Below, in pieces: positions 2,480 through 42,896 of a DNA stretch of 64,000 bases. Under the pieces are notes generated by a model that was not told where the DNA came from, did not search any database, and worked only from the letters and a program-made list of their open reading frames with translations. Origin of the DNA: Podarcis liolepis (lineage: Eukaryota). The stretch lies in assembly GCA_965112155.1 (NCBI GenBank), contig OZ218100.1; one strand, written 5' to 3'. A program made the translations under genes and the position numbers. Positions within the stretch are counted from its first letter, which is position 1, and each line of letters begins with the position of its first letter.

Positions 2480-3340
2480 CTTAAGCAGCACGCGGCGGCG
2501 GAGGCGGGAGCTGTTTTTCCTTTTAGAACTAACTATTCGCGGAGTGTTAAAGAAAAGCGACTACTTTTCCCAGCAAGCTCTGCGGAAGAAAGTCCCGGCC
2601 TGGGCTGCTAACCGAGGCTATATAAGCCCTTCGGGCGGCGCGGGTTTCAGACATTTGCCGGTGGCTGTCGTGGTTGCGAAGCCGGCGGTGGCTCTTTTCC
2701 TGACGCTGCAGCGCGCCCTTGTTGTTCCCGTTTATTCTCCCTTAGAACGAGCTCCTTTCCGATGAGGCCGAACGAGGCGTCCGAGGCGCCCGCTTTGGCG
2801 GCGCGCCTGGAGGAGCTGAAGCGTCGGGCGGCCGAGTGCATCGAGGCGTCGTCGGAGCGGCTGGCCGAGCTGAGCCGCGAGATCTGGAGCCGGCCGGAGC
2901 TGGCTTACGAGGAGCGCCAGGCTCACGACGCCCTTGCCCGCTTCTTCGCCGGCCTGGCCTCGGGGTCCTCGCCGGCCGGCGCTTGGCTGGTGCAGCGCAG
3001 CTACAAGCTGGAGACGGCCTTGCGGGCGGACTGGCAGTGGGGCGGCGAGGGAGACGCCGCGGGGGCTGCTCCTGCCGCCGCCGCCGCCGTCGAGGACGGG
3101 CAGAAGGCGCCCCTCCGGCTGGGCTTCTTGTGCGAGTACGACGCCCTGCCGGGCATCGGCCACGCCTGCGGTCACAACCTCATCGCCGAAGTGGGCGCCG
3201 CCGCCGCGCTGGGCCTGAAGAGCGCCCTGGAGAGCCTCTGCCCGAGCGGAGCCGCCGACGGACTGTCCCGCCACGTCCCCGCCGTCAAGGTGCAGGGTGG
3301 GTGGGAGAGGGAGAGAAGCTGCGCCCCGCATATCCTGCCT
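2480..3340. promoter_or_regulatory. CpG island / PM20D2 promoter and first exon
   Basis: Abrupt GC- and CpG-rich segment in AT-rich DNA, spanning the ATG at 2762. TATA-like TATATAA near 2619-2625. ZNF143/SBS-like motif GACTACTTTTCCCAGCAAGC at 2559-2578. Confidence 0.85.
2762..3289 (+). CDS. PM20D2: PM20D2 (peptidase M20 domain-containing 2, beta-alanyl-lysine/Xaa-Arg dipeptidase) coding exon 1 of 7
   Basis: MRPNE...IWSRPELAYEE...LGFLCEYDALPGIGHACGHNLIAEVG...PAVK, containing the M20D HACGH metal-binding motif. Phase-0 donor AAG|GTGCAG. Confidence 0.93.
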
Positions 3341-3613
3341 TCAGCCCACAACCTTTCCGAGCCCCCTCTTTTTCTTTGCTTTTTTTGGGGGGGTGGGCTG
3401 GCTGGGACGCTGCTGTAGTTCTCACCATGCCCCTTCTTTGCGTCTTGTTTTCGCAAAGTGCCCTAGAAAGATCTCTGGAGGTGTATATGCAACTTGTAAA
3501 CTTATGGGTAAAGAAAGAAAGACCCTCCCGTAAAGAGAGTGCCACATCCCGCATCCCGGGATGCTTTGGTTTTTGCTGCCACTTCCTGACCCACATGTCA
3601 CCTTTGCTTTCAG

Positions 3614-3762
3614 GTCACCGTGTTGGGCACCCCTGCTGAAGAAGATGGAGGAGGCAAAATCGACTTGATCAAAGCCGGAGCTTTCGATGGTCTGGACGTT
3701 GTTTTCATGGCCCACCCATCCCAAGAAGATGCAGCGTATTTGCCCGACGTAGCAGAACATGA
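3614..3762 (+). CDS. PM20D2: PM20D2 coding exon 2
   Basis: tttcag| [49 protein letters not shown] |gtgagt; 149 nt; catalytic EE motif. Confidence 0.96.
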
Positions 3763-5262
3763 GTGAGTAAACTGGAATGGGAGGCATTGTTTACTTGGCC
3801 ATTGTAACAAGCCTTTCACTTTTCATCCACTTTTGAGTTACTCGTTTGGCTTTCCAAAGGGCACTTGGAACAATTTATGTAACATTCTGCTGCTGTTTCT
3901 AATAAACCGCTAATGAGCACGTGGTGCTTGTGTGGTGCTGCCAAGTGAAACAAGTTTCTACTTCAATTAACTTGTATTACGTGAGGTTTGAGTTTTTATA
4001 CCATAACTGTTAATTCATTATCCTAAAGGGCCCCAGTAAGAAAGGAAGGCTGGGTAGCATTATGAAACAGCTGCCAAGGCCTCTTGTGCCAAGGGTCCCA
4101 TTCTTTCTCACTATGCTGTCCAGAAAAAGCTCACCCACAATTCTCCTACGTACTTTCCCTCTTAGCTGTTCACTGGGGAAAGTTGGGGTGATGCGTGAGG
4201 AAGACATGAGGACCTCCAAAGCCAACCTGCTCCCAGTAACCAGTCCTTCGGTATGGGTGATGGAGTCCATGCACAGAACACAGGTCCATTGGTCTAGCTA
4301 GCTCGTCTTGCACTACCTGAAGATGCAGGGGATTGAACCTGCAACTTCCTGAATGCAAAGCAGATGCTGTGCCACTGAGTTACTTCCCATCCTCCTTAAG
4401 CTATTTCCTACCCAGTGATCTGCCAGCAAGTTTTAGTTCCAGAACTGCTACTCTCTACATGTTTTTTACTCCCCTGGTTGCTGGGAGGAGCGGGCAGATA
4501 GAGCCTCTATCTAGATTTGGTCCTAAGATCTTCAGTTATTGACCTTATTCTGTATATTTACAATTATATGCACATTCCGAGTAAAGTACTGCCTGCAAAA
4601 TTATGTCACTTTGTAGTGAATTACAGCAGGGCTTCATTTTCAGGGACTTTTACTTATTTGAAACATATCTTCTTTATTCAACATCATCTTATTCAAGTTG
4701 CCTAATGAGCTTCTGTTTTGTTTTGTTTTTAAATCAGTTGGACCGGTAGCTAGGTAACCCTAACAATGATTTTTTAATTTAGTTCAAGGTATAAATTTCA
4801 TTTCCTGATATGTGATAGCGTTCATGAAACTGCCAACTTTATTGGAATAGGAGATGCTGCAGTTTAACAAACACCCTTCCACCCACAATTTGTTTTATTG
4901 TTTATACACATTTGTTAATATATTTGGACAGAACCATTATTCGGACTAGAGAGGGTGCTGGGTGTTTTTGAAGTCATTCTGTTTAGTTGGAAGCAATTCT
5001 GGTTATACAGTCTTGCTTCATGTGATTATTAAAGGAGTTTGTTTCAGCTGATCTCATTACCGAACATCTCCAGAAATTAGATCTGGTGTTTGCCTGCAAT
5101 GTAGACCTAAATGTCTTGTGACTCAAAGCTGTACAGTTGAGTGTTAAAAACTTTTATATTTCCTTTCACATTTCTGCAAAGATGACCACACATAGGCATA
5201 TTAAGAACAAGTAGAACTGATGTTCGGCTGTATACAATTTAGATTGTATATAGATTTGAATA

Positions 5263-38998: not shown

Positions 38999-39105
38999 CT
39001 CCAAAACCTGGCCGCATGCTGAAGTCATGGTCATCTATTCTCAGAAGTTGCTCTGACTTTGTAAGTGGTGATTTGGTGATATCAGGACTTCGTTTCAATA
39101 TTGGA
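38999..39105 (-). CDS. GABRR1: GABRR1 coding exon 3
   Basis: acatag| SPILKRSPDITKSPLTKSEQLLRIDDHDFSMRPGFG |gtatga; 107 nt. Confidence 0.96.
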
Positions 39106-40988
39106 CTATGTGGAAAAAGAGAAAAGCACAATTACACAACTGTACTACTGCACTATTCCTTAATGTGGGTTCTCCAGGGGGCTCACAGAACACTAATCTG
39201 GTGTGTGGAGACACAAATCAAGTAATTGTATTGGTTAAATGCCTAAAAAATAGTCCAGCCCCAATATTTCCTAGAGTGGTGGATAACCTCGCCGAGTTCA
39301 TTGGCCGTTCAATCCTATGCCTGTTTTCTCAGAAGTAAGTTCTGTGGTGTTCAGTGGAACCTCCTCTCAGAAAAGAGCATATAAGATTATAGACTGAGGA
39401 GATGAAATGACATTTGACATGTCACTGACTTCATCTCCTCCAGCTCTGCTAAAGTAACTGGACCCACCAACAACCACGGACTAGTAGGGGAGCTATGCAA
39501 AACCTTTGAAAAACAACCCCATATGATCTGGTGTATTTTTAGACAGCTAGTGTGATAGGAGTGCTAAAGCACGTTTCAGTTTCTTCAGTCCCTATTGAAC
39601 AAACACAACATTGTGCAGCGTGTAGCACGCTATCTAATGTATCTTTACCGTAATTGCTAAGTAAACAGGAATAGGGGCAGGGCCAGGAAGCACTGAGAAG
39701 TGAATTGTAAGCAAGTCTAAGATAGTTTTGTGACAGGCATTAAAGAAACAATGCTGAAAAGCCAACTGGCTGCAGCCCAAGTGCAAATGTGGCAAGTTGG
39801 GAACCCAGCCAGGCCGGACGCACGTTTGCAGAGAAAAGGCTTCTTCCATACCTGCTCCAGGTATCTTAGGAAAAGCAAAGAGAGCCTTAAAGAGGGGAGG
39901 GCGAAAACACAGAAGCAGTTACTTCAGAACAGTCACCTCAGCTTAGGCCCACCTCCACACACACACCCCAGAAGCCAAATGTAGCCCATCAGCATTGTAG
40001 GGAAGCTCACTGGAGATGCGGCAAAGCAGTTCTTCCTGTCTGTCTGGGCTTGTCAAATCGGGAAGCTGCCATGCATGCGACAGGCCTCATACAGGGCTGA
40101 TGTGCAGGCTGCATTTAGCTGGATGAGTATAAAGTTGTGCTAGTTCTGCTTGGGAAGCAAATTTGGTTGCACAGTCTAGGCGGTCTGAGCTGGATGTGTG
40201 CCTGGTTTATCTCGAAAGCAGGGCTGAGGTAATTTGCTGCTCAGGCCCACAGCTTCGATTTCAAGTTTGCAACACGCTGGTTACTTGATATGTTGACAGT
40301 GACTTGGTAGTGGTACTCGAGCCTAAATACTTTTGCTCCACTGTAACCATTGCAAATAGACTTGAGACCAAGAGCTCTGCTAGCCGGCTGCTTGTTTTCA
40401 CCATTACCAGTATCACCCAGCAGAATGGGAGGGAGAGGTAGCATCTTCCGTTGCCTTTCATACCCCTGGATTTAATTTTGTATAGGAAGCTGCTTTGTAC
40501 TGAATCAGATCACTGGTCCACCTAACTTAATATCTTCTAACTGGCAGCAGCTCTCCAGTTTCAGACAGGGCTCCATGCCAGCCCTTTCTGAAGATGCTAG
40601 GAACTTCGTGCGTGCAAAGCAGGTGCTCTACCACCTGCTATTGGTCCCAGACAACAATCATGCCTCCTGAAAACAGCTCAAAGTGACAGGCTTCTGGCAT
40701 GACTTCCTGCCCAAAGGAGAAGTCTCTCTCTCCCTGCCTCCCCTGTGTGTATGTGTGTTGGCTGATGTAAAGCTAGCAGCATCCAGCAGCTTTGTGTGAA
40801 TCTCTCCCCTTTTTGAGTCTCTTGTGCCATGTTTACTACAACCTCCTAAGCCCAGGTTATTATACTTAGTTATTAGTAGTGCATAGTTTATGATGCACCA
40901 GCATCTTCTAACTTCATGTATATAGTGTGAATAATTGTCTTGTGACTTGAGGCTCTAAAACACTTCACGTTGAACTGTGTGGCAAAGA

Positions 40989-41126
40989 CTGTGTGGTATC
41001 TGAAGAAGTGTGCATGCACACGAAAGCTCATACCAAGAACTAACTTAGTTGGTCTTTAAGGTGCTACTGGAAGGAATTTTTTTATTTTGACTATGGCAGA
41101 CCAACACGGCTACCTATCTGTAACTC
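40989..41126 (+). mobile_element. Penelope-like retroelement pseudo-LTR fragment
   Basis: Recognised reptile PLE terminal sequence (GAAAGCTCATACC...TTAGTTGGTCTTTAAGGTGCTACTGG...ACCAACACGGCTACC). Flanked by direct repeat TGTGGCAAAGA (40978-40988, 41127-41137). Confidence 0.75.
40994..41035 (+). ncRNA. Minimal type I hammerhead ribozyme motif (Penelope-like element-associated)
   Basis: UGGUAU-CUGAAGA-A-GUGUG-CAUG-CACAC-GAAA-GC-UC-AUACCA. Stem I is UGGUAU/AUACCA and stem II is GUGUG/CACAC. CUGANGA and GAAA core intact; stem III reduced to palindromic AGCU; predicted cleavage after C41029. Confidence 0.8.
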
Positions 41127-41342
41127 TGTGGCAAAGAGTTTTCCTCACTGTCAAGTCTGAAATAGCTGACAATAGAAAAGAACCAAGATCTTGAAGCTCT
41201 GCTGTGTTACTCTTCTAGTTACACTGGCATGGGTGTGATCTGAAAACTTTATCAGTACTGACTTCTGCTGAGGGTAGGGGTGGTTACAAAGGAGAGAAGG
41301 CATAGGAAAGGACATTGGCCTGTTCCGTTTTTAGTAGCATAC

Positions 41343-41396
41343 CTGCCTTGCTTGTGTGATTCTCCATGTGTTTCTCTTCTCTGTCTTTGAGGCCGA
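41343..41396 (-). CDS. GABRR1: GABRR1 coding exon 2
   Basis: tcatag| SRPQRQRRETHGESHKQG |gtatgc; 54 nt, phase 2-2. Confidence 0.92.
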
Positions 41397-41529
41397 CTAT
41401 GAACAAAAAAAAAAATAAATGATAGGTTGCGTATGTTCACAATCTTCTAGAAAGTTACATTGATATCTTCTTAGTGCAAATCACATATTTCATCCTTGAC
41501 ACACTATATTGACACTTGAGATTAACTTT

Positions 41530-42450
41530 TCCTTTTTTCCTTTTTATGAATATAAATTTTATTATCATAAGCACTAAAGACAAAAATCCATTATTAAATT
41601 AATTTGTCTACAAATACGGAAATGTTATATAAATATTGGATACATACTGTACAAAGACATTCAACATTTTTCAATATAAGACAACCCAATGTTTTATTTT
41701 AATTTATAAAATAATCATAGTTCTAAAATGAGATTACTTTAACCAGCCATATTTAATGTGCAACTAGACTTCAAATATATTTAAATCTATGTCTGCTTCA
41801 ATAAACTATATGCATTTGTTTCCTCCTGCATCCTTACATTCCAATACAGTATGATATAAACAAGCCTCACATTTCAATGAATCATCTTGCTGTCGGCCTT
41901 CCCTAATCCTTATTATATTTGTAAGTTTGAGCACTTGAACCATATCTCAGAACTTGGTTAGCCAATTTTCTTTTTCTGGAGGATCTTATTCTTGCCCCAC
42001 TCCACATGCTTGACATATAGGCATTATCCACACCTTACATTTAATGCACATCCCACAGCACATAACTTCGCCCAAAGAAACATAGAAACTGCAATTTGTT
42101 AAGGATTCTGGGGATTGTACTCCTGTGAGATGGGGGAAAATCATGTGCTTTAAAGCCAGGGTGACATAAGAAGGTGAAGGATAATTTATTCATCTTCCTG
42201 TAATGCAACTTCCTTGATGTATCCAAACAATATTACTATATTAGAGATCTTGATGCAGTTCATATTCCACAGTTTCACTTATTTCCATTAATATTTGGTG
42301 CCAATATGATCTGCTCTATGAAGATGACCAGAGAATATGGAAAATTTGATTAAACTGACACCTCCAGCATAAGCTACTAACATTGGGGTATGTTCTATTT
42401 AATCTTTTTTGAGGGGGAATCTCACTCCAAAAAAAGTTTTTAATTTGCAG
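41530..42450 (-). mobile_element. L1 LINE 3' remnant
   Basis: T-rich end near 41530 (poly-A on -). Decayed ORF2 C-terminal zinc knuckle LCWRC...FHILW in ORF 42316-42549. Confidence 0.65.
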
Positions 42451-42896
42451 TGTGAAACTTAGATGATTGGTCTGCAGAAGCGGGAGAGTGAAGTAGAGGC
42501 AGGAGGTTGTAAAATTACACAGAACCCCTGGGTAATGCTCATGGGACAAAGGATAAACATCTGCTGTATAGAGTCAAGTTCTCATAGCCTTTACTCAATC
42601 CTGCGGGGAAAGGAGAACAGGTGAAGCTATCGTTTTCTAATTCCCTCCACCCCAGTCACTCTTTTTAGAAGGCTACAGGAGCATTTTTTTTCTGGCTAAA
42701 ATGGATGGATTTTAATAAGGGTCTTAAATAAAGGGTCTTATTAAGAGCCCCCTGCCTTTCTCCCCATAATTTGAGCTCTGCAGAACATGAGACAATAACA
42801 TTGTGAGTGAACTGATATTAACACTTTAGTAGCAACAACAACAGCAGTGCACAAAATAATTGTTCAGACATTTTAAGCCACATTTTAAAACAATTT

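Follow-up and report, generated by a model that had tools for sequence, protein, structure and literature searches.

The insert in an intron of the GABA rho-1 gene, found in a 64-kb window (the whole stretch of DNA that was analysed), is very probably a promoter-less 130-bp stub of a Penelope-like element (PLE), for which reverse transcription likely started at a tail site near the start of the element's ORF and continued to the 5' terminus of an RNA that had not been cut. The minimal hammerhead carried by the stub is then likely an inert passenger. The window locus is ordinary: the motif has been described before and is present here in about 10,000 copies.

Position and boundaries of the insert

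The host gene is encoded on the minus strand, and 74 of the 75 residues of one exon agree with human GABA receptor rho-1, rho-2 and rho-3 being absent from the matches listed. Pfam ligand-gated channel domains were recognised in two host exons, and a third exon, which is short, matched no family. The insert lies between a short coding exon at about 41346-41396 (minus strand, about 210 bp from the insert) and the next coding exon at about 38999-39105 (minus strand). From the structure of the human gene, we take these to be exons 2 and 3, which makes the intervening sequence "intron 2". The predicted placement of the insert, antisense within an intron of the GABA rho-1 gene, was therefore borne out, with the intron number taken from the human structure. 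Because the hammerhead is antisense, it is not in cutting orientation in the GABRR1 pre-mRNA, as had also been anticipated.

The insert is flanked by the direct repeat that the original prediction described. The left target-site duplication (40973-40988) and the right one (41122-41137) match over 16 bp with one mismatch, including 11 bp that are exact (40978-40988/41127-41137), and positions 41122-41125 are common to the right duplication and the 3' end of the element. Behind the left duplication is a 7-bp junction filler (40989-40995, plus strand), which is absent from the parent element and to which stem I of the hammerhead owes its two outer pairs. Target bases 40975-40982 are repeated by 40989-40996.

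The filler is followed by the 130-bp stub (40996-41125, plus strand), corresponding to parent positions +4 to +133. Over 124 nt, the window copy and the pLTR of the parent differ only by a single T within a run. The copy closes with codons 1-11 of the element ORF (41092-41125, plus strand), which constitute the optional "tail" between the two classes of 3' ends described below. It lacks the TATA-like, promoter-like region of the parent, and is solo, with no inverted partner. The identity to the pLTR and the ending inside the ORF start identify the insert as a stub of an autonomous PLE.

The hammerhead motif

The minimal type I hammerhead motif occupies 40994-41035 (plus strand), of which 40996-41033 is derived from the element, and its predicted cut lies between 41029 and 41030. 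Every letter of the motif was found where it had been predicted. The motif comprises the 5' arm of stem I (40994-40999), the core (41000-41006) followed by an extra A (41007), stem II (41008-41012/41017-41021) enclosing a 4-nt loop, the GAAA (41022-41025), and the 3' arm of stem I (41030-41035). A hammerhead descriptor scan of both strands of the window returned this single match, and 0 of 100 block-shuffled windows matched. An Rfam scan of 39500-42500, taken to E values of 10, returned no hammerhead family, which we did not count against the assignment because the motif is without helix III. In the minimum-energy fold, stems I and II are predicted to form, together with a 1-bp stem III. The fold of the 160-nt stretch as a whole is no better than that of shuffles (z 0.26), and is uninformative.

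The motif shows the features of the minimal hammerheads of PLE pLTRs: CUGANGA, GAAA and UH in type I order; an extra base between 9 and 10.1 (A41007) and a G10.1-C11.1 pair (G41008-C41021); a short helix I and a palindromic vestigial helix III (AGCU); and location in a PLE pLTR. Six pairs of stem I are present in the window copy, as claimed; the two outer ones are junction filler, however, and helix I of the parent has 4 bp. The junction thereby lengthens stem I, with calculated energies of -12.5 versus -7.8 kcal/mol for the window copy and the parent.

Stem II and its loop (41008-41021, plus strand) do form a 14-nt palindrome, as predicted, which is absent from a second hammerhead family of this genome (L262, L269, L278, L279, L285-L288, L291). 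The latter family has a 5-nt non-palindromic loop II, and the palindrome is thus not a conserved feature. The second family also has C at core position 7, and four of its loci have upstream sequence in common that includes an AT-rich box located about 15 nt upstream of stem I.

Older, diverged copies with a different stem II are also present (L265, L267, L280, L284, L290). The main family is nearly uniform, with one double change genome-wide, which is not compensatory. Among 30 longer-stem matches, stem II is retained in an older family despite changes in its pairs, in an informal comparison of few loci (L267, L280, L290), and several old loci have lost stem I. At one locus, L267, a stem I pair is changed on both sides, so that both stems are kept by compensatory changes.

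It had been proposed that the hammerhead might cleave an antisense RNA by dimerising in trans with other copies. Cutting of an antisense intronic RNA in this way, with an effect on the host gene, would be compatible with the intact core and the lengthened stem I; co-folding predicts that two copies pair through the palindromic stem II, and RNA reads of a related organism contain copies in both orientations. However, a copy as young as this, among about 10,000, would be expected to be intact, and the predicted dimer leaves stem III unextended. In the available part of one account, monomers were inactive and dimers weak (PMC4209133), and in that of another the anole hammerhead was cleaved only with the assistance of the element's protein, with no reads ending at its cut (PMC11167929). 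Cleavage in trans is accordingly unsupported, and we regard a local role of this kind as extremely improbable. Nothing suggests any function at the window locus, where the stub is single, without a promoter-like region, and antisense to the host gene.

The parent element and its copies

Seven intact ORFs of 910 aa, in a unit of 3008 bp, were found in 5 of the 20 regions fetched around ORF-start matches, and the intact copies stand in 3008-bp tandems. The single ORF of the parent contains Pfam RVT_1 and C-terminal GIY-YIG domains above cut-off, as expected of an EN+ PLE. A cysteine cluster was recognised by eye in the linker before the EN domain, as in Neptune/Nematis. Partial tandems forming pLTRs, inverted truncated partners and an optional tail of 30-40 bp, all characteristic of EN+ PLEs, are also present. 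The identity of the window copy to the pLTR of the intact copies confirms the proposed origin of the hammerhead in a PLE pLTR. The element is young and abundant. Full-length units repeated in tandem and in inverted orientation over several kilobases occur at three loci (L081, L082, L083), and their identity of 99-100% points to very recent activity.

Positions in the parent were numbered from the A of an Inr-like site (+1), which lies 30 nt after a TATA-like box. In this numbering, the 4-bp stem I begins at +4, and the predicted cut is at +37/+38.

Exact word counts in the genome gave 9,879 occurrences of the 38-nt hammerhead core, 15,750 of a 27-mer downstream of the hammerhead, and 63 of a 38-mer at the start of the ORF. 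A search for copies of the unit, as the original prediction had proposed, returned near-identical copies, many with a head-to-head inverted partial copy. The first DNA search favoured copies sharing the junction letters of the window copy, and the end statistics were taken from a downstream anchor instead. An inverted partner was present in 70 of the 103 copies anchored in this way, and direct repeats of 9-14 bp surround all 9 short copies without an inverted partner. Loop variants are common to short (43/45) and long (33/34) copies, which also have the same main tail variant.

These data bear on the suggestion that the short, ORF-less unit is a retrozyme-like element, mobilised independently. 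Such a non-autonomous unit would be transcribed, cut, circularised and reinserted by the protein of the element. This would suit the thousands of units of the same length; short tandems of hammerhead-bearing units do exist (a 336-bp trimer at L084, about 2961-3764, and a dimer at L094, 657-1081), and animal retrozymes are argued, in the accessible part of a preprint, to derive from PLE pLTRs (bioRxiv 10.64898/2026.07.22.740005). Against this, the window copy is solo and identical to the autonomous pLTR, includes the start of the ORF, and lacks the TATA-like region or other promoter-like sequence. The tandems are joined at +1 to +5, away from the cut site, and their junctions vary from locus to locus. 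Tandem units each with a hammerhead are represented by a single copy in the window and by rare short tandems in the family, and the variants common to short and long copies, compared without a tree, argue against a separate lineage. Independent mobilisation of the unit thus appears very unlikely, and derivation of the stub from the autonomous element is preferred.

Ends of the copies

To map the ends of the family, copies carrying an exact downstream anchor word were collected from the first 4.7 Mb of contig C1, so that one contig end was sampled. The resulting 103 copies lie at least 300 bases from locus ends, with both arms of inverted pairs counted, and each was extended along a real tandem copy as the reference. 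The 5' ends of 45 copies fall at -4 to +7, that is, within 11 nt at the 5' arm of the hammerhead. A further 34 are spread from -12 to -880, and 18 lie at +8 to +35, many of these being joins through the stem II palindrome. A single copy begins at +36 to +40, around the cut, and 5 begin beyond.

Starts were also counted genome-wide with a pattern that requires two non-native letters before the start. This gave 2,455 starts at +4, which is the start base of the window copy, and 1,863 at +2, with 72 at the cut site (+38) versus 25 at a control base (+45). At the cut site, 25 of 30 loci are templated joins, mostly palindromic or fold-back. Templated joins also account for 14 of 30 loci at +2 and 14 of 30 at +4, and exact ends are thereby blurred.

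A G precedes +4 at 19 of 30 loci, and in 64 of the first 100 rows of +4 matches, scored by eye. We considered whether this letter could serve as proof of the RNA start, as a G derived from a cap. The evidence is ambiguous, because templating by a joined partner, which accounts for the G at 10 of the 19 loci, or fold-back on stem I gives the same letter.

Judging from the sequence, the common start of the stubs likely marks the start of the element RNA. Since thousands of copies extend across the cut site and terminate 34 nt beyond it, the templates of the stubs are taken to have been uncut.

The main rival explanation for the 5' cluster is fold-back, which demonstrably occurs: 6 of the 30 cut-site loci (L211, L215, L216, L219, L228, L229) consist of an inverted copy that ends at +4 and continues along its own stem I complement. 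The same stub would result, but the cluster would be produced by pairing of the 3' end of the cDNA with a copy of the 3' arm of stem I, the cDNA leaving its template whatever lies upstream. The largest class does end at +4, where the pairing of stem I ends, and fold-back would account for the G and TG found before +4. The pairing, however, amounts to 4 bp only, many ends lie at +2, +1 and -1, the position of the cluster agrees with that of a TATA-like box at -30 and of an Inr-like site, and 34 of the 103 copies pass through unhindered. We therefore consider fold-back unlikely as the source of the cluster, and favour an RNA start.

A pyrimidine-rich stretch ending in AG at +2 might alternatively be the end of an intron, the stubs being copies of spliced RNA. 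The parent does read like an acceptor just before stem I, and the available text of one study places the end of the Penelope intron of Drosophila virilis at the 5' end of helix I (PMC4209133). No constant exon lies upstream of the boundary, however, where a target duplication, an inverted partner or varied pieces of the ORF are found, and the ends scatter over -1 to +7 and do not fall on one base. Splicing is thus a highly improbable origin of the cluster, and a start of the element RNA at the 5' arm remains the preferred reading.

The 3' ends of the 103 copies form two classes, with 52 at +86 to +102 and 50 at +123 to +138, and 1 end elsewhere; the value of +126 reflects a tail variant in the reference. 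An 8-bp inverted repeat (41048-41055/41098-41105) is present downstream of the hammerhead in the window copy. It could form a hairpin between the two classes of 3' ends, and is possibly part of the initiation signal. At about 9512 in the window, one 8-letter word of the PLE recurs, which may be chance or an older fragment.

Longer copies were tallied by hand at 30 distinct places, taken from 40 locus records that form part of the 63 ORF-start matches. At 8 of these places, a pLTR starting at -1 to +5 continues into the ORF, and at 10, a second unit restarts at -2 to +4 directly behind a piece of the ORF. Breaks at +332 to +338 occur at 6 places (L084, L094, L071, L078, L097, L098), most of which then restart at the 5' arm of the hammerhead. 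Landing may be favoured at this position, or a short transcript may have its 3' end there, and the tandems that contain the break might give rise to retrozyme-like tandems. The 5 loci with an intact ORF all extend upstream beyond the TATA-like box and none starts at +1 to +5, which implies that a different template or an efficient jump is required for long copies.

RNA reads from a related organism showed loose ends at +2, +4 and +5 in all four runs (4/4), from 2 studies. No pile of molecule starts was seen in the four runs at +1 to +5 or at the cut. Copies were read on both strands, with near-zero depth inside the ORF, and the reads therefore come mostly from passenger copies.

A proposed origin of the stub

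We hypothesize that the parent is transcribed from the TATA/Inr-like promoter, with its RNA starting 0-3 nt before stem I. The enzyme would nick the target, prime there, and initiate inside the RNA at about +95 or +130, by analogy with the anole element in vitro. On arrival at the 5' end of the RNA, the cDNA would be joined to the target, giving a solo stub as in the window copy. Alternatively, it would be joined to an oppositely primed cDNA, giving an inverted pair, or would fold back on its own stem I complement or jump to another template. The transcript of the parent would hold two complete hammerheads, one per pLTR, and cleavage as a dimer would be allowed.

The scarcity of ends at the cut is compatible with cleavage followed by ligation into circles, which leave no ends there, a model put forward in the part of PMC4209133 available to us. 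Such circles could explain the full-length copies that extend past the promoter.

Tentatively, and with slightly more doubt than conviction, we propose that the stubs record a step resembling strong stop. The RNA would start at the 5' arm, initiation would take place about 95 or 130 nt inside, and the capped 5' end would be reached on uncut RNA, after which a template jump would be required. Failed jumps would give the stubs, the inverted pairs and the tandems with ORF pieces, with +332 to +338 as a favoured place of landing. A different, continuous template, such as a circle made by the hammerhead, would give rise to the full-length copies, in which the promoter is regenerated.

The family is useful because it is young, contains intact elements, and has sharply defined ends. 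The literature, in the portions available, leaves open how PLEs rebuild their upstream promoter and what the hammerhead does. The end map provides exact positions that can be tested (start at +1 to +4, cut at +37/+38, initiation at about +95 and +130, landing at +336), and is the only part of the present analysis worth following. Within the part of the literature covered, no published description of such a cluster of 5' ends was found; Fig. S2 of PMC11167929, which maps the ends of genomic copies, may bear on this point.

Comparison with known systems

According to the part of PMC4209133 that was available, minimal hammerheads in PLE pLTRs occur mostly as single truncated copies, with thousands per genome, in reptiles (turtle, snakes) among others. 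The window copy resembles them in its core, the extra base, the G10.1-C11.1 pair, a helix I of 4-5 bp and the palindromic vestigial helix III, and the family resembles them in consisting mostly of single copies, derived from truncated PLEs and present in thousands per genome (PMC4209133). Helix II, however, has 5 bp here and 7-8 bp in the Schistosoma example, and the present family is nearly invariant. The ends of copies are mapped here, whereas no such map was met in the same portion of that account.

The TATA and Inr-like sites of the parent have counterparts in rotifer elements, for which such sites in the pLTR are noted in the text available (PMC3846280). Transcription of the Drosophila element is likewise described, in the portion seen, as starting within its pLTR (PMC2377424).

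The closest functional comparison is with PAc, the Poseidon element of Anolis carolinensis (Frangieh et al. 2024), for which the available part of the report describes uncut RNA as the dominant template in vitro, with no reads ending at the cut (PMC11167929). The family studied here, like PAc, has a hammerhead in its pLTR, and its two classes of 3' ends resemble the two internal initiation sites that define the tail of PAc. In PAc, however, the start codon lies inside the hammerhead, whereas here it lies 62 nt after the cut. The ORF described here has the linker cysteine motif of Neptune/Nematis, unlike that of PAc, and a genomic cluster of 5' ends was found here, none having been met in the portion of the PAc account covered (PMC11167929).

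With EN+ PLEs of the Neptune clade (Craig et al. 2021), as described in the accessible part of PMC8557442, the family has in common a single RT and GIY-YIG ORF, partial tandems, an inverted 5'-truncated partner, an optional tail of 30-40 bp and heavy truncation. Inverted partners and tails are standard in PLEs by the same source. The window copy differs in being solo, without an inverted partner, and its parent is a candidate member of the clade.

Animal non-LTR retrozymes, as presented in the parts of bioRxiv 10.64898/2026.07.22.740005 and PMC7229834 that were available, are also short, carry a type I hammerhead and are related to PLEs. They are, however, tandem repeats with a hammerhead in each unit (bioRxiv 10.64898/2026.07.22.740005), whereas the window copy is solo and identical to the pLTR of an autonomous element.
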